From assembly GCA_009903795.1 (NCBI GenBank), contig WYER01000031.1, positions 40,080 through 104,079 on the forward strand: a stretch of DNA of 64,000 bases, read 5' to 3'. This DNA comes from Nitrososphaerota archaeon. GTDB lineage: Archaea > Thermoproteota > Nitrososphaeria > Conexivisphaerales > UBA164. The position numbers were made by a program, and so were the translations under genes. The notes beneath the pieces are model-generated. The model did not search any database. It had not been told where the DNA came from and saw nothing but the letters and a program-made list of their open reading frames with translations. This document shows positions 661 to 53,916 of this stretch, in pieces (position 1 is the stretch's first letter; each line of letters opens with the position of its first letter).

Positions 661-880
661 CTGACATCCTCCCCGCCTTAAAGGGCTAGCGTTCCTTCAA
701 GGCGAATCATAGGTTTGTGGTTTACCGCCTTCATCTTCATTGCTTCATAGCTAGCAGGTGCGAATCGCACCCACCCCGCTCTGTTCGTCCAGCGGTAGAC
801 CACGGGCTGTGCCTTCAGCCACTTACCCCTATCCTTAACGGACTCGGGGATATGTAGAATGTTTATTGCTCCGTTCAGAT
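661..880 (-). ncRNA. predicted omega/reRNA scaffold of IS copy 1 (tnpB 3' end plus right end)
   Basis: Placement follows known TnpB biology. This same segment is the part retained in the tnpB-less mini-element at 53579-53873. The 5' boundary is a guess. Confidence 0.4.
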
Positions 881-1940
881 CAGCGTTTATTACCTTCCCT
901 GTGTGAGGACACTTAAACAAGCCTCTTTTAATCCTTCCTTTTTCGTGAATTTCCCCACACAGGGAACACGTCTTAGATGTATTTTCCTCATCCACAAGCT
1001 TAACCTTTATTTTGTATTCTTGTGCAACATACTTGATTCGCTTTATTATTGCAAGATAGCTCCAAAAGTTTGTATTTCTTTCGTTTCCTTTATTACGAGC
1101 TATTCCCTTTGGATAGCCGATGTATATTTCCCCTACACCTTTATCGTAGAGGGATTCTACGATTTCCCTTGCTAGTCCTTCTCTAGCGTTCTTCAGCAAA
1201 AGAGAACGCTTTTTGTATAACATTTCAAGCTTCCTGCTAGTTTTCAAGCCGTGCCTTGCAAGCCTCTTCTTTTCCTTAGCAATGCGCTTGCTCAACTTCT
1301 TGAATTCTGAAAGCACTGAACCTCCTTTGAAGATCATCCACGAGCCATCTTGAACGGCAACGGTTGCAAGGTTTACAACGCCTAGGTCTATGCCCACCTT
1401 CATTTTACCTTTTGGTTTATTATTTATTTTTACACTCACAGGAATCCTTGCGTACCACTTTTTCCTTGCATTATCGTAAAATATCTCAAGGGTCCCTTGC
1501 TTGCCTACCCACTTAAGCTTGCCATTGAACTTGAGCCTCAGGTTGAAATCCATGAGGAATATTTCGTTTCCTTCAATCTTGTACCTGTCGTTTCTAATCA
1601 AAAGAAACAAATCATCTTTCTTTTTATGTGGAGGCTTTGGCTTCATCCACTTAGGTAATTCACCTTCTTTCTTCTTTTTGCTTAGCTCGAAAAAAGATTT
1701 CCATGCAGAAGCGTTCTTTCGCGTTACTTGCGCTACGTTTGCCCCGTGCAATACAGCCTTATATTTTTCATAAACGACTTTTTCTGTTTTATTAAAATCT
1801 ACAGGCTTGTGCTTTTTGTATTGTTCAAGCCTTAACTTATTCACTTCGTTCCAGCAATCAACGAATGCCTTTCCGAGAGCCTTTAGTTTAGCTTTTGTTT
1901 CTTTTCCTGCAATGATGCGCACCGTGTTTGATCGACGCAA
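678..1940 (-). CDS. tnpB: TnpB (RNA-guided nuclease / IS605 OrfB family)
   Basis: 420 aa. [11 protein letters not shown] (RuvC-I), GEIYIGYP (candidate RuvC-II Glu), TSKTCSLCG...FKCPHTG zinc-ribbon region, [11 protein letters not shown] (RuvC-III). Confidence 0.9.
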   Translation of the reverse strand: MRRSNTVRIIAGKETKAKLKALGKAFVDCWNEVNKLRLEQYKKHKPVDFNKTEKVVYEKYKAVLHGANVAQVTRKNASAWKSFFELSKKKKEGELPKWMKPKPPHKKKDDLFLLIRNDRYKIEGNEIFLMDFNLRLKFNGKLKWVGKQGTLEIFYDNARKKWYARIPVSVKINNKPKGKMKVGIDLGVVNLATVAVQDGSWMIFKGGSVLSEFKKLSKRIAKEKKRLARHGLKTSRKLEMLYKKRSLLLKNAREGLAREIVESLYDKGVGEIYIGYPKGIARNKGNERNTNFWSYLAIIKRIKYVAQEYKIKVKLVDEENTSKTCSLCGEIHEKGRIKRGLFKCPHTGKVINADLNGAINILHIPESVKDRGKWLKAQPVVYRWTNRAGWVRFAPASYEAMKMKAVNHKPMIRLEGTLAL

Positions 1941-2060
1941 GCTTCTGTTATTTTATCCTAATTAAAGTATATAAATACTTTAGCCTTTTTCATGAGAAAC
2001 ACGTTAGCAAAGTATTTCAGCATCCCCGCCTCTAGAAGAGGCGAGGCTTTCGTTCGTTTT

Positions 2061-4341: not shown

Positions 4342-6255
4342 ATGAAACTTTCGCTTGGCTGGAGGATTTACTTTGCATTAGTGGGACCTTTAGTTGCGGT
4401 TGCATTTTTCGGTTTGATTGTGATACGAAACGGTTTAGCTCTTAATAATACTTTTGAAGGTCTTTTAGGCGCTTTCATTACGGGTTCTGCAATCGGGCTT
4501 CTGATAGGAGGCTTTGGTTACTACTATGAAGAAATGAAAGGACAAACGATAAGGCTTCCGAAAGTAAAGGTTAAGACAGTAAAGCCGAAAGCGAAGAACC
4601 CGCGCATAGAAAAGCTTTCAAGAAAGCTGTTTCACGGGAAAGAAACAGAACTTTTGAAAGCGGGAATAAGCGAAACGCCCGCGAATTTCTATTATAAGTG
4701 GACGCAATACTTCGTGTATTCTATTATTGCTTCGGTTCCTGCAAGCTTTTTGCTCGCTTTTATTATGAAATCTCCATTGCCTTTGTTAGTTATCGCTTTT
4801 CCCTTTCTGATACTATTTTTTGCACCTTCATTTCAGGTTAAGAACGCTTCTTCAGAAAGGAGGAGAGGGCTTGAGGACGAGCTTCCTTTCTTTGCAATTT
4901 ACGCGACCGTTCTTGCTGATGCTGGCATTTCTTTGTACGAAGCATTCAGGAGGCTCATAGGTCAAGGGGTATTCAAGTGGATTGAGAAGGACGCGATTTA
5001 TTTGGTTAGGGCAGTGAAGTTTTTAGGCTTAGATCCTCTTACTGCTTTGGATTCGCTCGCTCACGATCATCCTTCAAAAGAAGAACGTGAGCTTATTTTC
5101 GGTTACACTTCTGAATTGAGGTCAGGAGGAGATGTCGCGCGTTATCTTCAGGATAAGTCTGAAGAACTTTTGAGGTGGCTTGAGTTTAGGTTTGAAAAGT
5201 ACGGGGATAGCGTTTCGGACATTGGGGAAATGATGACGGCTTTGTTCTTCATTTTGCCCGCAATGATCCTTGCGACGGCTTTCATTTCTCCTAACACTTC
5301 GATGACTACTGTGTGGCTTATGAACGCTCTCGTGATACCTATGTTAGGGGTCGTGATGGTTTTTCAGATTCGTGGGATGCAACCTAGGACTGCTGATCTT
5401 TATACAGGAAACCTTACGCTCGGGATAATTGCTGGTGCTGTAACTGTCGTGGTTCTTTTTATTGCTCACGCTCCTTTGTGGGCTTTGTTATCTGCAGGTC
5501 TTGTTTCAGGGTCTTTAGCTTATTCTATTCAAGTCTTCGTTCAAAAGAGGCTTGCTGATGAAGAAGAACATTCGATAGCTCCTTTCTTGAGGGACATTAC
5601 TGAATACAGGAAATCTGGATATACTTTGCCTAGAGCGATAGAAAAGCTCGCGAACGAAGGTAACTACGCGGAGAGTTTCAAGTCAACTTTGAAGAGCATT
5701 CACGCAAAGCTTAGTTTGGGTTTCAGGCTTTCTGATTTCAAAGCTGGGAGGTCTTGGATCGGCAGGCAGATCTTTTTCTTGTTAGGGCAGATTGAGGACA
5801 CGGGTGGAGGCAATCCTCGAGAGTTTGAAGCTGTTTATCGTTTTGCTGAGCGTTATACTTTTGCGAAAAGAACTGTTAGGAGCAGGATGAGGATTTACGA
5901 AATGCTTACTTTGTTCACGCCTGTGGGTCTCGCGCTCTTGATCTTTATAATGTCAGCTATGTTCACGTTTCTTAAGTTTCCTTCTTTCTCGTTTTCGGGT
6001 TCGATGGTTTCTGTTTCAAGCACGAGTTTAGGGTCTTATACTACTTTGCCTCCTCAGTTGTTCACGGCTTCTTACGTGATGGTTGTTGAAGCAGGGTTCT
6101 TTATGGCTCTCTCTTCGACTGTGGCTGTGGACTTTACTGTAAAGAACGTGTGGAGAGTCGCGCTCACTCTTATTCTTGCGTCGGCAACTATCTTCGTTCT
6201 TACAACGTTTGCTCCAGCTTTAGTCCCACATATTTTCCACGTTCCTTTTAGTTGA
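4342..6255 (+). CDS. TadC/FlaJ/PilC-like polytopic platform protein (two T2SS-F-like domains)
   Basis: 637 aa and many TM segments. Two cytoplasmic helical modules: ELPFFAIYATVLADAGISLYEAFRRL and IAPFLRDITEYRKSGYTLPRAIEKLA. Confidence 0.65.
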   Translation: MKLSLGWRIYFALVGPLVAVAFFGLIVIRNGLALNNTFEGLLGAFITGSAIGLLIGGFGYYYEEMKGQTIRLPKVKVKTVKPKAKNPRIEKLSRKLFHGKETELLKAGISETPANFYYKWTQYFVYSIIASVPASFLLAFIMKSPLPLLVIAFPFLILFFAPSFQVKNASSERRRGLEDELPFFAIYATVLADAGISLYEAFRRLIGQGVFKWIEKDAIYLVRAVKFLGLDPLTALDSLAHDHPSKEERELIFGYTSELRSGGDVARYLQDKSEELLRWLEFRFEKYGDSVSDIGEMMTALFFILPAMILATAFISPNTSMTTVWLMNALVIPMLGVVMVFQIRGMQPRTADLYTGNLTLGIIAGAVTVVVLFIAHAPLWALLSAGLVSGSLAYSIQVFVQKRLADEEEHSIAPFLRDITEYRKSGYTLPRAIEKLANEGNYAESFKSTLKSIHAKLSLGFRLSDFKAGRSWIGRQIFFLLGQIEDTGGGNPREFEAVYRFAERYTFAKRTVRSRMRIYEMLTLFTPVGLALLIFIMSAMFTFLKFPSFSFSGSMVSVSSTSLGSYTTLPPQLFTASYVMVVEAGFFMALSSTVAVDFTVKNVWRVALTLILASATIFVLTTFAPALVPHIFHVPFS

Positions 6256-7276: not shown

Positions 7277-7534
7277 TCAGTCTTCGTCAAGGTTCAAAAA
7301 GTGCAACGCTTCGCTCAATAATTGCAGGTTCTTTGTTTGTAAGTATTCGTCCGTTGTGTCTAGCAAAATGTCGATTAAGAGGTCGAGTCCAAGGTCTGCA
7401 CCTGTTTCTGCAAAGTGCTGTAAGATAAGGATTGCTCCTTCAACGAATTTGCGAAACTGTTTGTTCTTTTCGTGTTCGGACGCTTCTTTCATGTACTGTA
7501 TCGCTTCTTCTAAAGAAAGTTCACTTTCAATCAT
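7277..7534 (-). CDS. hypothetical acidic helical protein
   Basis: 85 aa ORF. Its start overlaps the stop of the upstream paralog by 8 nt (operon-like). Confidence 0.35.
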   Translation of the reverse strand: MIESELSLEEAIQYMKEASEHEKNKQFRKFVEGAILILQHFAETGADLGLDLLIDILLDTTDEYLQTKNLQLLSEALHFLNLDED

Positions 7535-8030
7535 TTTTACTCAGCATCTCCACGATTTTGTCAAGTTCCGCGTAAAGGTTCTCAAAGGTGCTCGTGTTAT
7601 AAATTATCCAGTCGTAGGGCATTTTGTCTACTTCGAGTTCACTTTGATGATTTGAGAAAGGTGAAGGTGGAACGTTTCTTATAATGCGGACTACGAAAAA
7701 TCCTTCGTTCTTCAAAGCTTTGTATTCGTTTAAGAAGCGTAAGTCGTCTATTGTAATGTTTGTTTCTTTCGGGAGGCTTTTGATTTCTCGCAGAACGTAT
7801 TTTACCCAAACGTCTTCATCTATTTCTCGCATTTTGATGCCTAGGTCTTGAAGTAATTTTCGCGGTTTCTCTCCTGACTCAAATTGCTCGGGAAACAGAT
7901 CGCGTGCTATTTCTTTGAGTTTGTCCGCGAATGCGAGCTTAACAAAACCGTATTTGAGAACTAGGTAGGTTGCTGAGGTTGTTTTTCCAACCTGCATTTT
8001 TCCCGAGAACGCAATTCTAAGCCCTTGCAT
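7527..8030 (-). CDS. P-loop kinase, dNMP-kinase-like (paralog 2)
   Basis: MQGLRIAFSGKMQVGKTT ... ITIDDLRFLNEY. T/A box 20 nt upstream. Confidence 0.5.
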   Translation of the reverse strand: MQGLRIAFSGKMQVGKTTSATYLVLKYGFVKLAFADKLKEIARDLFPEQFESGEKPRKLLQDLGIKMREIDEDVWVKYVLREIKSLPKETNITIDDLRFLNEYKALKNEGFFVVRIIRNVPPSPFSNHQSELEVDKMPYDWIIYNTSTFENLYAELDKIVEMLSKND

Positions 8031-9999: not shown

Positions 10000-10020
10000 T
10001 GGAATAATATAATTGAAGGG

Positions 10021-10028
10021 TTTAAAAA
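10021..10028. promoter_or_regulatory. central T/A box (tttaaaaa) shared by divergent starts at 9999(-) and 10049(+)
   Basis: gggtttaaaaatc. It lies 21 nt from the minus-strand ATG and 20 nt from the plus-strand GTG. The same geometry recurs at 32145-32152. Confidence 0.5.
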
Positions 10029-10048
10029 TCAAAATCGCCTTATCTTTT

Positions 10049-12784
10049 GTGAGAAAAGCGGTTTCTAGCACTCTCGCGGGTTTGATTGTTATAGGTATTG
10101 CCTTAGCTTCGATTTTTACGATCTACGCTCTTTACCTAAACGGCTTGCTTTTTGTTTCGCGAACAAACCAGCAAACGCTTTTTCTCGAATATAAGGCTCA
10201 AGAACGCCTCGCGCTTGTCGTTTCGGGTTCTAATTTAACTGTAATTAACGAGTGGGCGCATCCTTCGAAGATTGTTGATTTGCTTGAAATAGACCCGTCG
10301 AACAATTTGCATACTGTTCCCGTGAGCGTTGAAATTTTACCTAGACAAAATTACACGTTTGTTAATCTTTTGCAATCAGGATGGAAGTATGCTGTTCTCA
10401 CGTTTTACGGGAACGAGTTCTGGGCGCCTTACGGAATGATAAATCCTGCGAGTGAAATGTATACGCTTACGATGTCCGTTTATCCTTCAGGCGCGGGTCA
10501 AACAACTCCTGCGGTAGGCACTTACGTTTTGCCTTATGGGACGGTCGTGCATATTAGCGAAACGCCTGTCGGGAATAATTTGTTCTTATACTGGGTCGGT
10601 TCGGGTTATCAGAGTTATTCGGGGACTTCGCAAAATGCAACGATCTACATTTGGGGCAATATTACTGAAACGGCTTACTATGGCTATAAGATCACGTTTA
10701 ATGCAACAGGCTTGGGTTCTGATGCTGAAGGAACGGTATTGGTCGTGAACGGAAACTCTTATTCTTATTCGCAATTGCCCGTTACAGTAGACGTTCCAGG
10801 AGGTCAATCCGTGAGTTATTCTTTCTATTCGCCTGTTTATTCAACAATAAACGGTAAAAGGTACGTTTGGGTTTCGACAACTGGCTTAGATAATAAGCAA
10901 TCAGACACATTCACGCCTACGCAGTCAGGAAGCATTATAGGGAATTACGAAACTCAATATGAACTTATTATGAGCGTGTATCCTTCGGGCGCGGGTTCTA
11001 CTACTCCGAGCGGTTCTTCGTGGTATAATGCTGGGTCAAACGTTAAGATTTCGGCAACCGCGAATTCGGGTTATCAGTTTGCTTCGTGGAGCGGTTCAGG
11101 GTCTAGCTCTTATTCAGGAACGAGCAATCCTGTGACAATTACAATGAATTCGCCTGTGAATGAAACTGCAATCTTTAATATTGAGGTAATTATTCAAAAC
11201 ACGTTCGGAGGATCAGCTTCGGCATCGTATAACGGGCAGACATATCAATCTAATACTTCATTTTACGTGGCTCCTAATTCGCAAGTTACATTCACTGCAT
11301 CTCCGAATCAAGGCTACTTTTTTGACAAATGGGTTGGAACGCAATCAAGCACGAACAATCCTTTGAATTTAACAATTACTCAACCCACGAATGAAACGGC
11401 AGAATTCGGTTTCTATATTACTTTCAGTACCACAGGTTTGGGTTCTAATGCAGAAGGAACAGTTCTTTCGGTTGACGGACAAGGCTATACTTACTCGCAA
11501 TTACCTGTAACTATTGCCGTGAATTACGGACAATCTGTTAGTTATTCATTTTATTCGCCTGTTTATGCTTCAACAAATGGAGTAAGGTACGTGTGGGTTT
11601 CAACTTCAGGTTTGGATAATAAACAAACGGATAATTTTATACCGCATCAATCTGGGGACGTTATAGGAAATTATGCGTCACAATATGAACTTATCATGAG
11701 TGTGTATCCATCAGGCGCAGGAACAACGAACCCAAGCGGAACAACATGGTATAACGCAGGAACGAATGTGCAAATTTCAGCAACGCCTAACGCGGGTTAT
11801 ATGTTTGCGTCATGGAGTGGGGTCGGAACAATTTCATACTCAGGAACGAATAATCCTGCTACTGTAACAATGAATAGTCCTATTAACGAAACGGCTAACT
11901 TTGGCATTCAGGTAACTATTCAAAATACGTTCGGAGGGATTGCAACAGCATCTTATAACGGGCAGACGTATTATTCAAACACATCGTTCTTTGTTACTTA
12001 CGGTTCTCAAGTAACCTTTACAGCGTCCGCGGATCAAGGCTATTTCTTTGATATGTGGACAGGGACAGTTCAAAGTTCAAGCGCGACTTTGACTGTTATA
12101 ATTACTTCGCCTACGAGCGAAACTGCAGAATTCGGGTATTACATTACGTTCGGGGTTTCGGGCATGAATTCAAGCGCTCAAGGGACAGTTCTCACGCTCG
12201 ACGGAAACACTTACACGTATTCACAATTACCCGTGACAATCGCAGTGAATTATGGGCAATCAGTAAGCTATTCGTTCTCTTCGCCTGTCTCAACCTCGCT
12301 TTCGGACTTGCAATTCGTTTGGGTTTCAACTTCGGGCTTAGACAATAAGCAGTCAGACACTTTCACGCCTCATCAAGCAGGAAGTGTTATTGGAAACTAT
12401 GAAAGCGAATACTTTTATTACTTCAATCAGACGGGCATTCCTTCGAACGGTCCCGATTGGACTTTGAACGTGAACGGGCAAACTTACACTCTTACCCCGA
12501 CGCAGACTTTGAAGATTGTTTCAACGTCTTCTTCGCTTTCATGGACTGCATACAATACGAGCACGAACGGGGTTGTATATTATCCGTCGCCTAGCTCAGG
12601 AACCGCGCATCCTGGAACTAACACGATACACTATAATTCCGAAGTTACAGCAACAGGCATTTCAAACGAGTTTGTCTTAGTTTTGAATCCAAAGTTTTGG
12701 TTCTTTTTATTGAAAGTTCAAGTAGAGTATGTAATGCTTATTGTCTCACTGCTTGATGCCGTTCCTGAGCTCGGGTTAGCGTAA
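10049..12784 (+). CDS. large surface protein with a class III pilin-like leader and B-repeat-like tandem modules
   Basis: A GTG start at 10049 gives MRKAVSSTLAGLIVIGIALASIF. It is followed by repeated YELIMSVYPSGAG..GY.FASWSG..SYSGT.NP.T.TMNSP.NETA modules. The ORF track start (TTG 10013) probably over-extends. Confidence 0.7.
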   Translation: MRKAVSSTLAGLIVIGIALASIFTIYALYLNGLLFVSRTNQQTLFLEYKAQERLALVVSGSNLTVINEWAHPSKIVDLLEIDPSNNLHTVPVSVEILPRQNYTFVNLLQSGWKYAVLTFYGNEFWAPYGMINPASEMYTLTMSVYPSGAGQTTPAVGTYVLPYGTVVHISETPVGNNLFLYWVGSGYQSYSGTSQNATIYIWGNITETAYYGYKITFNATGLGSDAEGTVLVVNGNSYSYSQLPVTVDVPGGQSVSYSFYSPVYSTINGKRYVWVSTTGLDNKQSDTFTPTQSGSIIGNYETQYELIMSVYPSGAGSTTPSGSSWYNAGSNVKISATANSGYQFASWSGSGSSSYSGTSNPVTITMNSPVNETAIFNIEVIIQNTFGGSASASYNGQTYQSNTSFYVAPNSQVTFTASPNQGYFFDKWVGTQSSTNNPLNLTITQPTNETAEFGFYITFSTTGLGSNAEGTVLSVDGQGYTYSQLPVTIAVNYGQSVSYSFYSPVYASTNGVRYVWVSTSGLDNKQTDNFIPHQSGDVIGNYASQYELIMSVYPSGAGTTNPSGTTWYNAGTNVQISATPNAGYMFASWSGVGTISYSGTNNPATVTMNSPINETANFGIQVTIQNTFGGIATASYNGQTYYSNTSFFVTYGSQVTFTASADQGYFFDMWTGTVQSSSATLTVIITSPTSETAEFGYYITFGVSGMNSSAQGTVLTLDGNTYTYSQLPVTIAVNYGQSVSYSFSSPVSTSLSDLQFVWVSTSGLDNKQSDTFTPHQAGSVIGNYESEYFYYFNQTGIPSNGPDWTLNVNGQTYTLTPTQTLKIVSTSSSLSWTAYNTSTNGVVYYPSPSSGTAHPGTNTIHYNSEVTATGISNEFVLVLNPKFWFFLLKVQVEYVMLIVSLLDAVPELGLA
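10685..12410 (+). repeat. in-frame tandem repeat, period 726-729 bp, about 2.4 copies
   Basis: Unit starts at 10685 (YKITFNATGLGSDAEG), 11414 (YITFSTTGLGSNAEG) and 12140 (YITFGVSGMNSSAQG). Long near-identical peptide stretches between units. Confidence 0.8.
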
Positions 12785-23848: not shown

Positions 23849-23885
23849 ACAAAACGAACGAAAGCCTCTTCAAAGGCGCGGCGAA
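23849..23885 (+). repeat. solo IS left-end-like sequence
   Basis: acaaaacgaacgaaagcctc is identical to the IS left-end leader (20 nt). It is followed by a shortened hairpin-like ttcaaaggcgcgg. Confidence 0.5.
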
Positions 23886-23935: not shown

Positions 23936-25786
23936 ATGGCTTCGCTTGATGTTGAAAGTTTAAAGGGACATATTTTTGTGGTAGGGGCGACGGGTTCGGG
24001 AAAGTCCACACTCTTAGTCTTTCTCATGAAATACATTCACGAGAACATGAAAGATGCTTCTGTTATTTTCATAGACCCACACGGCGACGCTTCTATTCAA
24101 ATCGCTTCGCTCGTCGAAAACCCAACGCTCTACGATCCTATCTACTCACCTTTCGCTCTTAACCCGATGGATCTAGGCTCTTACAAAGACGAAAGCGAAA
24201 GAACGTACTTAGTTCAAAGGCGCGTTTCGGAGCTCGTTAATATGTTGAACGAGCTTTTCGGGGTAGAACAGAGCAGAGCACCTAGGCTTTTGTGGATCTT
24301 CAGGGGCTTGCTTTACTACTTATACTCGATTACGGACACTCCTACCTTTTTAGACCTTTACACGCTCCTTTCAGACCTTTTGAAAGACCCGAACGAAATC
24401 CGGACTTTAATGAAATCCTCGGGCTTGGACGATGAAATAATTAAAAACACGATCGAAGCGATTTCATCTTTGCCTCCTGAGGCTTTCACGGCTGTGCTTA
24501 ACAGGATCTCAGGCTTTGTAATGCCCGCAGGCTCTCTAACTTCGAAAACTTTCAACACGAGGAAAACGAGCGTGGAGTGGAATAAAATGCTGGAGCCTAC
24601 ACAAGTAACGATCTTTCGCATCCCTCGTTACGCGCTCCCCGATGACTTTCGTAAGATCTTAACTTCGACAATCGTGATGGACTTGTTTTTTGCAATCGAG
24701 AAGAGGAAGAACGACGGGAAACCTATCACGCCTGTATACTTAGTAATCGATGAATTTCAGAACGTTGCTGACTTAGACATTTTAGACGTTATTTTTTCAG
24801 AAGCAAGGAAATTCGGTTTGTTTCTAGTAATAGCGCATCAGCACCTCCTTCAAGTTAACGATACGCTTTTGCATTCTATTCTAAGCAATTCAAGGCTCAT
24901 TATCGCTTTTCGTTTAGGACCCGAAGACGCGGAAAAGCTCGCGAAGGCTATGGGTAATTTGAATTTGAAAGAAACGCTCACGAACCTTCCGAACTACACG
25001 GCTTTAGTTAAATACATCGACAAGCACTACATAATGAAAACAAAGGACGTTCCTCAAGGTAACCCTGAAATCTTGAAAAAGCTATCGAAAAAAGTAGAAC
25101 TCAACGAAGACAGGATCCCCGTGTATTACGTTACAAAATCAAAATACCCTGCGCCTCCTTTTACGCCTTTGAGGTGGACTGTACTTTCGTTTATTTATAC
25201 TAACGGTCCTCAGGTTTCTTACGAGCGCGTGAAGAACGAAATGTTCCGCAAGTACGCGTGGGACGAAAGCCTAACTCTCTCTGCTTTGAATTATTTACAA
25301 GACAAAGGGCTGATAAAAGCCGTAAGAACAGCGGACGGGGTATTTTACGAAGTCACGCCTCACGGTCTTACGTATTTCAAGCCTCGCGACGTGTTTTCGA
25401 AAAGAGCGGGAGGGGCATTGCATAACGCGATGGTCGGCGAAATTTACAGAAGGTCTATCGAGAATGGCTACTGGGTTGAAGTTGACGACGGGAATAGCTT
25501 TGAAGAAAAGCCTGACCTTCTGGTTTTCATGCCTATGGAAAACACGAGTGTAGAACGCGGAGGTCTCGTGAAGAACATTCGCAGTTTGGAAGAGTGGGGA
25601 ATACCTGTCGCTTATGAGATAGAAACGCTTTCGAACTCTTCAGAACAAATAAAGAAGAACCTATACAAAAACTTGAGCAAAGGTTATCGCGTTGTATTTG
25701 TCGTGGAGAACGAAGAGAACGCAAAGAGAATTCGCGAAATTTTAGGCGAGGGAAACTATGAAGTGATAGTGCTTTCGACGTCGTGA
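23936..25786 (+). CDS. T4SS coupling-protein/HerA-like ATPase fused to a wHTH and a PD-(D/E)xK-like C-terminal domain
   Basis: Walker A VVGATGSGKST, IFIDPHGD, Walker B VYLVIDEFQ, ARKFGLFLVIAHQ. wHTH-like LNYLQDKGLIKAVRTADGVFYEVTPHG. C-terminus has EKPDLLVF...AYEIET. Confidence 0.6.
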   Translation: MASLDVESLKGHIFVVGATGSGKSTLLVFLMKYIHENMKDASVIFIDPHGDASIQIASLVENPTLYDPIYSPFALNPMDLGSYKDESERTYLVQRRVSELVNMLNELFGVEQSRAPRLLWIFRGLLYYLYSITDTPTFLDLYTLLSDLLKDPNEIRTLMKSSGLDDEIIKNTIEAISSLPPEAFTAVLNRISGFVMPAGSLTSKTFNTRKTSVEWNKMLEPTQVTIFRIPRYALPDDFRKILTSTIVMDLFFAIEKRKNDGKPITPVYLVIDEFQNVADLDILDVIFSEARKFGLFLVIAHQHLLQVNDTLLHSILSNSRLIIAFRLGPEDAEKLAKAMGNLNLKETLTNLPNYTALVKYIDKHYIMKTKDVPQGNPEILKKLSKKVELNEDRIPVYYVTKSKYPAPPFTPLRWTVLSFIYTNGPQVSYERVKNEMFRKYAWDESLTLSALNYLQDKGLIKAVRTADGVFYEVTPHGLTYFKPRDVFSKRAGGALHNAMVGEIYRRSIENGYWVEVDDGNSFEEKPDLLVFMPMENTSVERGGLVKNIRSLEEWGIPVAYEIETLSNSSEQIKKNLYKNLSKGYRVVFVVENEENAKRIREILGEGNYEVIVLSTS

Positions 25787-43099: not shown

Positions 43100-43555
43100 T
43101 TATTTAGCCTCCATCTTCTGATAATAAGAAAGATCAAGAAGCCCATGCCCGCTTAGGTTAAAAGCTATAACGAGCTTTTCCCTTTTTTCTTTGGCTTCTT
43201 GAGCTACCTTTATAGCTGCCATTATTGCATGTGCGCTTTCAGGGGCTGGTACTATACCCTGTGTTCTTGCAAACAGCTTTGCAGCTTCATAAACCTCAGT
43301 TTCACTGAATTCCATCCATTCAACAGTCTTATCCCGAACCAAAAGGCTTAATGTAGGAGCAAGTCCATGGTATCTAAGGCCTCCAGAATATATAGGAGGA
43401 GGTACGTAGTCTTTTCCTAGTGTTATCATCTTAAGCATTGGTAGTAGACCTGCAGAATCCGGGAAGTCGTATTCATAAACGCCTTTGCTGAACTTTTTAA
43501 TTTCAGAAGAACTAACGGCAATGTACCTCGAACCTCTTTTAGATCCTATAAATGG
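43100..43555 (-). pseudogene. trpB: tryptophan synthase beta (TrpB2-type), C-terminal fragment
   Basis: The frame is open from the IS right end: [15 protein letters not shown]...GGLRYHG...APESAHAI...NLSGHG. Confidence 0.75.
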
Positions 43556-44953
43556 CTGGCATCCTCCCCGCCTTAAAAGGCGATGGTTCCTTCAAGGCGG
43601 ATCACAGGTTCGTGGTTTACCGCCTTCATCTTCATCGCTTCATAGCTAGTGGTTACCCACCCCGCTCCGTTCGTCCAGCGATAGACCAAGGGCTGTTCCT
43701 TCAGCCACTTACCCCTATCCTCAACGGACTCGGGGATATGTAGAATGTTAATTGCCCCGTTCAAATCAGCGTTTATTACCTTCCCTGTGCGAGGACACTT
43801 AAACAAGCCTCTTTTAATCCTTCCGTTTTCGTGAATTTCCCCACACAGAGAACACGTCTTAGATGTATTTTCTTCATCCACAAGCTTAACCTTTATCCCG
43901 TATTCCTCTGCTACTTCCTTGATTCGCTTTATTATTGCAGAATAGCTCCAAAAGTTTGTATTTCTTTCGTTTCCTTTATCCTGAGCTATTCCCTTTGGGT
44001 AGCCGACGTATATTTCTCCTACTCCTTTATCGTAAAGAGATTCTACGATTTCCCTTGCTAGTCCTTCTCTTGCATTCTTGAGCAAAAGAGAACGCTTTTT
44101 GTATAACATTTCAAGCTTCCTGCTAGTTTTCAAGCCATGCCTTGAAAGCCTCTTTTCTTCTATTAAGATGCGCTTTGTTATCTTCTTAAATTCTGAAAGC
44201 ACTGAACCACCTTTAAAGATCATCCACGAGCCGTCTTCAACAGCTACGGTTGCAAGGTTTACAACGCCTAGGTCGATGCCCGCTTTCATTTTGCCTTTTG
44301 GTTTATTATTTACTTTTACAACCATAGGAATCCTTGCGTACCACTTCTTCCTTGCATTATCGAAGAATATTTCAAGGGTTCCCTGTTTGCCAACCCACTT
44401 GAGCTTTCCAATGAACTTTAGTCTCAGGTTGAAATCCATGAGGAATATTTCGTTTCCTTCAATCTTGTACCTGTCGTGTCTAATTAGCAAAAACAGGTTA
44501 TCTTTCTTTTTGTGAGGAGGCTTAGGCTTCATCCACTTAGGCAATTCACCTTCTTTCTTCTTTTTGCTTAGCTCGAAAAAAGATTTCCATGCTCCCATGT
44601 TCTTTCGCGTTACTTGCTGAACGTTTGCCCCGTGTAATATAGCTTTGAACTTTTCATAAACGACTTTTTCTGTTTTATTAAAATCTACAGGCTCGTGATT
44701 TTTGTACTGCTCAAGCCTCAACTTATTAACTTCGTTCCAGCAATTAACGAATGCCTTTCCGAGAACCGTTAGTTTAGCTTTTGTTTCTTTCCCAGCAATG
44801 ATGCGTACTGTGTTCGATCGGCGCATGCTTTCGTTATTTTATCCTAATTAAAGAATATAAATACTTTAGCCTTTTTTATAAGAAAACACGTTAGCAAGGA
44901 CGGAATAGTTCAGCATCCCCGCCTCTTCTAAAGGCGAGGCTTTCGTTCGTTTT
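43556..44953 (-). mobile_element. IS200/IS605-family element, tnpB-only, copy 2, inside trpB
   Basis: Same ends as copy 1. The left-end hairpin loop is tagaa instead of ttcta. The 5' flank on the IS strand is TTAC. Confidence 0.85.
43573..44826 (-). CDS. tnpB: TnpB
   Basis: 417 aa, collinear with 678-1940. Many substitutions, so it is not a recent identical copy. Confidence 0.9.
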
Positions 44954-45639
44954 GTAACAAAACTACTTCCATAACGCTTCCAACTAGGTACTTGTAACCT
45001 TTTTTTTATGGCGTATTCTATAGCCTCGCTCATAGCTATCCCTAAAGATCCAGGGTTAGAAGGATTCTTTTCTAGCTCTTTTCTGCCGTACTCAGTAACT
45101 TCAGAAGGGCTAGCATACACTTCAGCGCCATAAAGGTTCATCATAGTTCTCCTGCCAGGTTTCTGTTCATAGCTAACCCTAACCATAAAAACTGTGGACT
45201 TGATTTTCATTAAAGAGGCTGCAAGCGCGACAGCTGTACCCCACTGCCCTGCACCGGTTTCTGTTACAACTCCTTCAACCCCTTCTTCTTTGGCAAAATA
45301 CGCCTGAGGTATAGCTGTGTTTATCTTATGAGAACCAGAATGAGTTGCGCCTTCATATTTAAAGTAAATCTTTGCAGGCGTATCAAGGACTTCTTCAAAG
45401 TTTTTAGCCCTCATAAGGGGCGTGGGTCTACCCGCAAGCGAATACAGTTCTATTACATCATCAGGGATCTTAACATACCTTTCAGCGGTAAACTGCTGTC
45501 TGAGAACTTCTTTAGGAATTATGCTGTTTAAAAGTTCAATTCTTGAGAAGTTAGAATCTTCAGGATCACGAGGAGGAGGAAGAGGCCTTGGAAGGTCTGG
45601 TACTATATTATACCAATAACGCGGGATAAATTCTATCAT
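44954..45639 (-). pseudogene. trpB: tryptophan synthase beta (TrpB2-type), N-terminal fragment with an extra frameshift
   Basis: [10 protein letters not shown] (PLP Lys), ETGAGQWG. The A8 run (plus-strand T8 at 45000-45007) shifts the frame. The alternative frame reads [17 protein letters not shown] up to the IS. Confidence 0.75.
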
Positions 45640-47066: not shown

Positions 47067-47559
47067 GCTTTTTGTTTATAATCTATAGTTTTTAAATTTT
47101 GTTTTTATTAAACAAACATGTTTATACAATAACGTTTAAAATGGTATAAAAAATTTTGTAATACAAGTTTTAACAAATAATGGTGGTTAAGTCCTCATCC
47201 GTAAGGTGGGATGCCCGTCCGTAAAAGTAGATCAAAACTTTTGTTAATTTTTATGATGTTTTTGCTATTATACCAGATTTTAAATGCGATCTTTGCCCTA
47301 AAACTTTAGGCAAGGCTAAACAAGCTATCGTGCTGATTAACCTTATTATGCTATAAAAATAGTGCTTTAAGCCAAAATAAAGCATGGTTTAAGCTAGTGA
47401 AGTTATTTCATTGTGTTTAAAGTAAAAGCTATCTGAAGATCGTAATGTATATGTTAGAGATTAAAGCTTCAATCATTAATAGAGAAAAAACATTTTATAA
47501 GCACTTCGATTTCTGTTTTTTATTGGTTGGTTGATCAAATTATAGCTGGTGGGGTGCCT

Positions 47560-48014
47560 GAGCCGACTTCTCAGGCTATACCGGTTCGCGCCGAAAAAGC
47601 TGTTAGTATAAAACCGAGCAACAGAAGGACTATCAAGATAAGGCTTCTGCCAAAAGGAAGCGCTTAAAGAAAGCTAAGCTACGAGTTGATGAGTGCCATA
47701 GGGCTTGAAGCCCAGGAATACGGAATGAAAGCGTATGAAGCGATTTAATACAACACATCAAGGCTGTGCGCTTATCATGGTGTAAAAGCAACACACAGTC
47801 TGAGAGGAGTGATAAATTGCCCTTTAGGTCATAAGATTCATTCAGACCTCAAACGGGGCTCTAAACATATCGAAAAAAGCAACCGGAATGCTGATTCTGG
47901 GCGCTGCAAAGCTGCTTTCATATCTTGTGTTTCACAGCGGAGTAGCACCCGTTAAAGGGGTTTAACCATCAAGACCTCGGGAACCTTCGCCTTTTAAGGC
48001 GGTTAGGAGGTCAG
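47560..48014 (+). pseudogene. decayed, divergent tnpB 3' part plus IS right end
   Basis: My translation gives ..LEAQEYGMKAYEAI*YNTSRLCAYHG...VINCPLGHKIHSDL.. with stops. It ends cgccttttaaggcggttaggaggtcag, similar to the right end of the full copies. The 5' limit is uncertain. Confidence 0.5.
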
Positions 48015-48078
48015 ATTTTATAAAAACTCGAAGTGTCAGTAAAAGCTTTATATAAAGTGCGAATCATAATAAGTTAGA

Positions 48079-53531: not shown

Positions 53532-53578
53532 CTCAAATATATTTATGAATGCTGTTTATAGGCTATTCTAAAGTTTAC

Positions 53579-53873
53579 AAAACGAACGAAAGCCTCGCCT
53601 CTTCTAGAGGCGGGGTAAAATTTAAATTACTAAAACGTTGTAAAGCGTATTAAAGCGTGTCCCGTAAGGGAATACTTCAAGAAGGCTCTACATATTCTGG
53701 AGTCCAATGAGGATAGGGTAAGTGGCTGAAGGAACAGCCGGTGGTCTACCGCTGGATAAACGGAGCGGGGTAGGTAACCATTAGCTATGAAGTCATGAGA
53801 ATGATCGCGGTAAACCACAAACCTATGATCCGCCTTGAATGAACTATCGCCTTATAAGGCGGGAAGATGTCAG
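53579..53873 (+). mobile_element. tnpB-less mini-element (left-end hairpin fused to the last ~215 bp of the IS)
   Basis: 5' flank TTAC (53575-53578). Left end identical to copy 1 through the hairpin. From about 53690 it is collinear with the tnpB 3' end and right end, ending gggaagatgtcag. Confidence 0.8.
53655..53873 (+). ncRNA. predicted omega/reRNA scaffold carried by the mini-element
   Basis: Homologous to the 3' region of copies 1 and 2. The 5' boundary is a guess. Confidence 0.4.
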
Positions 53874-53916
53874 AGTAACGTTTAAATTCTTTAGGGCGCC
53901 AATTTAATTTTCTAAA

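Follow-up and report, generated by a model that had tools for sequence, protein, structure and literature searches.

The nearest described counterparts of the element treated here, a 295-bp insertion ("the mini") carried by a 64,000-nt stretch of contig WYER01000031.1 (assembly GCA_009903795.1) from a Nitrososphaerota archaeon, the whole of which is called the window below, are the palindrome-associated transposable elements (PATEs), which Dyall-Smith et al. defined in Haloquadratum walsbyi in 2011 as protein-less derivatives of IS605/IS1341-type insertion sequences (ISs) possessing near-terminal palindromes and a short target oligonucleotide (PMC3119063). Some of those families have expanded as such, one of the elements, HqIRS71, retains part of the tnpB C-terminal region, and the palindromes are in turn targeted by other repeats, namely the 110-bp SMR-A (PMC3119063). 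In Halobacterium salinarum, sense overlapping transcripts (sotRNAs) were described by Gomes-Filho et al. in 2015 as overlapping the 3' ends of IS1341 tnpB genes in sense and being linked to HgcC; the PATE-derived VNG_R0052 is transcribed there, a regulatory role was proposed for it and for the sotRNAs, and its overexpression changed growth (PMC4615843). In the words of Meers et al. (2023), PATEs "often encode omega RNAs", and these depend on TnpB in trans, full elements being the only ones tested experimentally in their Geobacillus stearothermophilus system (10.1101/2023.03.14.532601).

The mini shares with the Haloquadratum PATEs the lack of a conserved open reading frame (ORF), the palindromes, the lack of terminal inverted repeats and target-site duplications, a fixed target, membership in an expanded family, a remnant of the tnpB C-terminal region, and palindromes that are hit by other elements. 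[quoted passage not shown] As in the Halobacterium sotRNA/HgcC case (RF02656, RF00062), the RNA-like region overlaps the tnpB 3' end and the right end (RE) of the element, spans the whole sot0042 model and has the HgcC 3' motif GAGGAxGUCAG; however, the mini family has a conserved TATA-like box, where upstream searches of the sotRNAs in Halobacterium showed neither a B recognition element nor a TATA box, and its Rfam scores lie well below gathering. As in G. stearothermophilus, tnpB-only and gene-less elements share the left end (LE) and the RE, the guide would lie beyond the RE, and the target-adjacent motif (TAM) of TnpB would be the TnpA target motif, although that system is bacterial and experimental while the archaeal mini is known from sequence alone. 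The reading that seems probable to us, though well short of certain, is that the mini is a PATE-type non-autonomous derivative of an IS200/IS605 element (with an IS1341-type tnpB) that makes its own omega RNA and defends the site it occupies with TnpB (and TnpA) supplied in trans. The parts of the locus on which this reading draws are the following:

53575..53578, forward strand: target tetranucleotide TTAC, the predicted TnpB TAM, situated in the flank (outside the element) and preceding most copies.
53579..53615, forward strand: LE matching that of copy 1, with an 18-nt leader ending AAAG and a subterminal hairpin (arms 53593-53602 and 53606-53615).
53616..53649, forward strand: mini-specific promoter-like segment, missing from the full copies and kept in nearly all minis.
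53650..53686, forward strand: 5' leader predicted for the RNA; of its two small hairpins, one is UCCC-GUAA-GGGA (53660-53671) and the other lies at 53675-53685.
53687..53873, forward strand: right-end module, homologous to the 3' end of tnpB together with the RE (putative omega/sotRNA scaffold, from blastn and Rfam), ending ...GATGTCAG.
53874..53889, forward strand: predicted guide segment AGTAACGTTTAAATTC, derived from the flank, with its boundary taken from the empty site.
661..2060, reverse strand: full copy 1, a tnpB-only IS and candidate TnpB donor (TnpB coding sequence 678-1940, TTG start, 420 aa).
43556..44953, reverse strand: full copy 2, a candidate TnpB donor (TnpB coding sequence 43573-44826, 417 aa).

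Transcription would, on this account, start at about 53650 from the TATA-like box beside the LE hairpin, giving a transcript that would comprise the two small 5' hairpins and the omega scaffold, run out of the RE and thereby gain about 16 nt of flank (53874-53889) as its guide. TnpB from a full copy (two are present in the window) would bind this RNA in trans, and, whenever a Y1 TnpA encoded elsewhere excised the mini, TnpB would cut the vacated TTAC-AGTAACGTTTAAATTC site, and recombination with a chromosome copy in which the element persists would put it back, so that the mini would parasitise TnpA for its mobility and TnpB for its retention. The supply of a guide to TnpB in trans is the plausible, already published expectation for PATEs.

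The extent of the element is best seen from a locus lacking it (L063), which was found by fetching orthologues of the downstream phosphodiesterase gene. The intergenic region measures 90 nt there and 385 nt in the window (90 + 295), and the joined window flanks align with L063 without a gap (68/93 identical), the junction being AAAGTTTAC followed by AGTAACG in the window and GGAGTTTGC followed by AGAAATG in L063, which reads TTGC where the window has TTAC. Because this empty site aligns gaplessly, the element comprises exactly 53579-53873, read directly 3' of TTAC on the forward strand, and possible guide DNA begins at 53874. Likewise, a copy from a related metagenome-assembled genome (MAG), L019, lies in a methyltransferase-like ORF whose frame is restored (..DLIFMANVY joined to HDLV..) only by removing what follows TTAC up to and including GTCAG. 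Boundaries one base earlier at the start or later at the end, prompted by the reading frame of copy 1, were rejected on the strength of the L019 ORF and L063; the frame argument is void, as about 13 AIM24 profile positions are missing at the junction of copy 1. An earlier note on this DNA had given the same coordinates and the same start after TTAC, both of which L063 and L019 bear out to the base, whereas its guide, for which it gave a start at about 53872-53874, would begin at 53874 and not 53872 in view of the empty site. Empty sites of other copies were looked for among the fetched loci, and none was found. A JGI metagenome contig carries the window locus too, in identical form.

All copies end ...GA(T/C)G(T/C)CAG and diverge beyond it, and TTAC precedes nearly all of them, the exceptions among full and mini copies with an intact LE being TAAC (copy 1 and a solo remnant) and TTAT (L037). 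The solo LE remnant (23851-23880, forward strand) reads TAAC plus AAAACGAACGAAAGCCTC, followed by a shortened hairpin-like TTCAAAGGCGCGG; there is no RE nearby, and the remnant adjoins the ORF 23936-25786 on its upstream side.

Comparison by blastn within the window divides the mini into two homologous parts and an unmatched middle. The LE (53577-53615) is identical to that of copy 1 at 39/39 positions (2062-2024, minus strand; E=6e-15), just as the earlier note had it through the hairpin, and to that of copy 2 at 37/41. For 53687-53873 the identity is 85.7% with copy 2 (189 nt, 43744-43556; E=3e-57) and 79.8% with copy 1 (198 nt, 858-661; E=3e-44); no significant counterpart in either full copy exists for the middle, 53616-53686. 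The 3' collinearity of about 215 bp claimed previously thus holds for 187 nt by BLAST, its extension to about 216 nt depending on a faint, non-significant likeness (GTGTCC..AGGGAA). The LE arrangement follows the IS200/IS605 layout, its 10-bp hairpin folding as single-stranded DNA at -9.8 kcal/mol (z = -3.9); the rule by which AAAG and TTAC pair comes from work on IS608. The ORFs overlapping the element are limited to a 34-aa one entering from the flank and a 62-aa antisense one, neither of which is conserved in the mini family.

The description of the element as an LE hairpin plus an omega-RNA region without tnpB was right, its 3' part being homologous to Rfam sot0042, the curated family of Halobacterium transcripts that overlap the 3' ends of IS1341-type tnpB genes and nowadays go by the name of omega RNA. 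The right-end module has an RE subterminal hairpin whose arms lie at 53830-53836 and 53856-53862 and which, like that of the LE, folds as single-stranded DNA. In the strand sense of tnpB, the module runs collinearly with the final 187-198 nt of either full copy, a stretch to which about the last 170 nt of the tnpB coding sequence belong. RF02656 (sot0042) matches it at 53690-53865 over model positions 1-174/174 with 20.8 bits (E=0.002 in a 451-nt search), and matches full copy 2 with 32.9 bits (E=5e-7, again 1-174/174). As the whole model is covered and the match begins 3 bases from the homology breakpoint (53690 vs 53687), the mini, judged by these alignments, holds in essence the tnpB-associated RNA as far as it is curated, without further parts of tnpB. 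A scan at the gathering threshold returned only a tRNA, the sot0042 and HgcC matches surfacing only in E-value mode, so that what the mini module displays is a remote homology to sot0042 and not Rfam membership. HgcC (RF00062) matches copy 2, running about 21 nt beyond ..GCCAG into the flank, i.e., the guide position.

Another HgcC-like match (47933-48027, forward strand, 26.8 bits, E=0.006; ..GGAGGTCAG followed by ATTTTATAAAAAC) stands at the end of a 1-kb non-coding gap of the window, 47067-48078, and is preceded by an apparent decayed TnpB C-terminus (..HSDLKRGSKHIEK..); the gap is probably a relic of a second tnpB/omega family.

In accord with the Rfam architecture, the consensus of the mini and full copies has P1 (CCCC/GGGG plus GUCC/GGAU), P2 (GGCUG/CAGCC), the long-range P3 (UGGUCUAUCGC/GCGGUAAACCA), an internal GNRA-capped hairpin, for which indel variants preserving it provide qualitative support, and a terminal hairpin. 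Pairing is kept in 94.7% of cells, with double changes in 3 pairs only (6 cells, a number that 0/500 shuffles reach), all of them in the terminal hairpin. For the latter, the short palindrome CGCCTTTTAAGGCG (Rfam P5) was considered and set aside, since breaks in it are more frequent in this family than in the long hairpin CCGCCUUGAAGG/CCUUUUAAGGCGG, where the sole compensatory changes are found. An RNAalifold consensus on 55 copies proved unstable, and the Rfam-guided structure was taken instead, covariation remaining weak.

Upstream of this module, the mini has a TATA-like box, TTTAAATT, at 53621-53628, and nearly every mini of the MAG and the metagenomes keeps GGGGTAAAATTTAAAT(T)ACTAAAAC. 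TTT(T)TAAA stands 26-30 nt before the ATG in many genes of the same genome, a promoter consensus with which the box of the mini agrees. In the window, a uniform box (G)GTTTTTAAA(G) lies 26-30 nt 5' of the start codon of about 15 genes at 2.4-27 kb (e.g., 2391-2828, 4342-6255, 7527-8030), a spacing that would imply leaderless or very-short-leader mRNAs. These uniform promoter boxes served for calibrating the TATA-to-start distance of the genome, and, because that spacing is applied to the TTTAAA at 53621, the start is predicted near 53650; the TATA-like box of the mini would then act as its promoter, with a transcription start site at ~53648-53652. Of the two 5' hairpins that would follow, the first lay inside the 21-mer used for the metagenome scan, so that its conservation follows from the search pattern itself, whereas the second shows indels and substitutions that preserve a 3-4 bp stem (GCCC-GUGA-GGGC, GCCAC-ACGA-GGGC; in the window mini and L030, CUU-CAAGA-AGG). 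As to the source of the mini-specific 70 nt, no significant likeness was found in the full copies, the second tnpB remnant or other fetched sequences. The best local alignment sets its TATA-like box against the TATA of the tnpB promoter, a score that 581/1000 shuffles equal.

The conserved 5' hairpins, having no counterpart in the full copies, would also suit a different reading, in which the PATE transcript is itself a regulatory non-coding RNA that acts independently of TnpB, much as PATE-derived and sot RNAs are transcribed and phenotypically active in Halobacterium (PMC4615843). We deem this improbable, for no target is evident, the conserved part is precisely the TnpB-associated scaffold, its variants track those of the tnpB copies, and such RNAs have been understood as TnpB guides since 2021 (10.1101/2023.03.14.532601).

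The guide, in turn, would be AGTAACGTTTAAATTC, which has no other near match in the window beyond chance. It could direct TnpB only to the mini's own vacated site (TTAC plus 53874 onwards), which would amount to ordinary self-serving homing with no new targeting function, and the element in place is not a target, since the guide-matching DNA is then preceded by ..GTCAG instead of TTAC. A TldR-type domesticated guide system was considered as well and rejected, as the RuvC D/E/D residues are kept in both TnpBs and the guide matches, within the window, its own flank only.

The element sits in a 90-nt divergent promoter region, reading toward the downstream phosphodiesterase gene and away from a divergent LarA_C-like gene, and the predicted guide overlaps the TATA-like box (TTTAAA, 53881-53886, -36) of the former, all of which might suggest a promoter donor or cis-regulatory insertion, whereby an outward promoter or the mere 295-bp displacement would alter the expression of either gene. 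Hardly any credence can be given to this, as the phosphodiesterase gene's own TTTAAA box is also present in the empty-site orthologue L063, family members occur in many unrelated contexts, and nothing suggests selection.

Both candidate TnpB donors, which are 89% identical over 1.4 kb, look intact, having the Pfam OrfB_IS605 and Cas12f1-like_TNB domains and RuvC motifs (GIDLG / VDEENTS / a third motif) that align with those of solved TnpB/Cas12f, D/E/D being present in both. Copy 1 splits an AIM24-family gene (remains at 200-2230 of the window, with ~13 profile positions missing at the junction) and is flanked by TAAC instead of TTAC; copy 2 interrupts a PALP (TrpB-like) gene (43100-45639), which seems to be frameshifted close to the insertion as well. 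Both regions are on the reverse strand.

A number of observations nevertheless weigh against a mini that is a working donor of guide RNA, the first of them concerning the machinery. In the latter half of their zinc finger, the TnpBs show CP(R/H)T in place of the CxxC of solved relatives, so that a Cys, the fourth zinc ligand, is missing or replaced, and because of this the nuclease activity of TnpB is unproven. Y1 TnpA is absent among the ten window ORFs of 127-154 aa in a Pfam scan, and a crude HUH...Y regular expression run over the window and all fetched loci found none either, so that present-day mobility is unproven. Regarding the RNA, its promoter, transcription start site, 3' end and guide length are all predictions made from the sequence, the sot0042 score of 20.8 bits stands against a gathering threshold of 88 and thus far below what Rfam membership takes, covariation within the family is weak (the copies being very similar to one another), and the single-sequence fold of the mini RNA is no better than that of shuffles (z = -1.4); with z = -2.8 for the antisense strand, such folding is uninformative.

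The weightiest of the rivals, a dead relic, concerns the window copy as such: the family would be active now or formerly, and this copy a decaying fossil without a usable omega RNA. The window mini has 5/47 consensus pairs broken, the highest number seen (the 20 further copies in the comparison have 0-2), and with 13 changes private to it over 190 nt its scaffold mismatches outnumber those of any other family member; stem P1a is damaged, as is, in this copy alone, the internal hairpin (GUAG-GUAA-CCAU vs the consensus GUGG-GUAA-CCAC). The density of private changes, 6.8%, is about what neutral drift would produce, given that the neighbouring 43 nt of intergenic flank diverge from the MAG by 21%, and the Rfam score is at the low end. 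On the other hand, the LE is identical to that of an intact copy, the promoter-like module has only 3 differences in 62 nt from a MAG mini, P1b, P2, P3 and 9/10 basal pairs of the terminal hairpin are intact, and the score of 20.8 exceeds that of the intact full copy L019 (19.0) as well as those of two other minis, the other minis ranging over 17.6-36.7. The earlier note had held that a scaffold disrupted relative to the full copies would speak against it, and the outcome is divided, the broken pairs pointing to disruption and the Rfam score remaining within the range of the minis. We regard the relic as somewhat unlikely, yet as a prospect to be taken seriously; on the sequence comparisons, guide-RNA donation is the design at the level of the family, while the activity of the window copy is uncertain, and this copy may well be degraded, perhaps with weakened or lost activity.

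That a family exists, which the earlier note missed, became apparent from two censuses, run in a related MAG and in metagenomes and resulting in at least 22 insertion sites. With 23 nt of the RNA region common to full and mini copies as a pattern, 22 matches were obtained, all in one species representative, the Nitrososphaeria MAG F8S.bin.2; they include about 15 full tnpB-type copies (both ends present in 7, the others truncated where the contig stops) and 7-8 minis sharing the internal 70-nt segment. The scan of hot-spring-type metagenomes with a 21-mer taken from that mini-specific segment gave 38 stretches, in which the RE end always lies 214-232 nt downstream and the 21-mer is never within a tnpB gene. 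Right flanks are readable for 37 copies in all (MAG and metagenomes), representing 22 distinct insertion sites. All minis have one common breakpoint, GGCTCTACATAT where full copies read CATTCTACATAT, and this window holds just one mini copy, which is a member of a conserved family and not a one-off deletion. Complex right-end variants (e.g., the GGGTGCGATTCGCACCTGC hairpin) are common to mini and full copies; the RNA module of the minis therefore stays matched to its equivalent in the tnpB copies.

The palindrome invaders, which are SMR-A repeats in Haloquadratum, are DDE_Tnp_1 insertion sequences in this family. They split the LE hairpin in ~19/44 minis, in both orientations (L011:1-1000, L015, L022, L024, L026, L032, L034, L036, L042, L051 and others), and have ends reading ..AATTATTCAACAC(A/G)GCA. 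The remaining LE half was found 0.8-1.1 kb upstream in the 3 loci checked (L024, L026, L042), and intact LE alleles exist elsewhere at the same sites.

Of the two labels offered previously, PATE fits (protein-less, both subterminal palindromes, TTAC, multi-copy). [quoted passage not shown]

The TTAC junction of the window occurs in three states: empty in L063 (1802-1891), occupied by a full tnpB element in a sister lineage, at L007 (510-1394), L061 (1-262) and L062 (1-406), and occupied by the mini in the window, L007 being from F8S.bin.2 and L061 and L062 from two other assemblies (their downstream gene is 94% identical to that of the window at the nucleotide level). At a second site, a full element in the MAG (L012) has a mini as its counterpart in L038, the flanks being 93% identical on either side and a left-end variant common to the two. 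Moreover, minis at shared sites in different metagenomes (the sets L026/L042/L047/L049, L034/L036/L057, L037/L044/L046 and L009/L046) have flanks that are 97-100% identical, whereas the elements themselves are only 85-96% identical. This pattern suggests frequent ectopic gene conversion or replacement among copies, with the caveat that assembly chimeras induced by repeats may contribute.

A bolder reading of the same data, which we consider speculative and rather unlikely, would have the mini family be a selfish element made of nothing but a guide RNA (promoter, 5' hairpins and omega scaffold) that competes with its tnpB parents for sites, the allele series and the divergence of elements relative to their flanks reflecting repeated in-situ replacement through repair of TnpB/TnpA breaks on a shorter ectopic template; if true, this would be a natural case, in archaea, of IS605 elements being converted between the autonomous and the non-autonomous form by homing. 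Internally deleted non-autonomous transposons of the P element and Ac/Ds systems arise by interrupted gap repair. The likeness, a long and a short derivative at one site sharing only their ends, as if a break had been repaired on a shorter template, is a mechanistic analogy, there being no sign here that repair made the mini.

Elsewhere in the window, the ORF 10013-12784 (forward strand, 923 aa) contains three tandem repeats of 726 nt, 67-78% identical, with Flg_new_2 (InlB B-repeat-like) domains.

The concept of a PATE supplying an omega RNA in trans is already published, and the element, read as a guide-RNA donor of this kind, is a further case, whose host lineage is new and whose conserved TATA-like box is a modest novelty. 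Current concepts are unchanged by the finding, the interest of which lies chiefly in the empty/full/mini series and the large family; the mini is, at the same time, a clean natural example of the modularity of TnpB systems in thermophilic Nitrososphaeria, with ends and scaffold kept and an apparent promoter of its own added. The site known in its empty, full and mini states, together with dozens of relatives, offers a test bed for the position of the minimal 5' boundary of an archaeal omega RNA, of use in compact guide engineering, for the loading of PATE omega RNAs onto TnpB in trans, and for the ways in which homing and ectopic recombination shape IS605 families.

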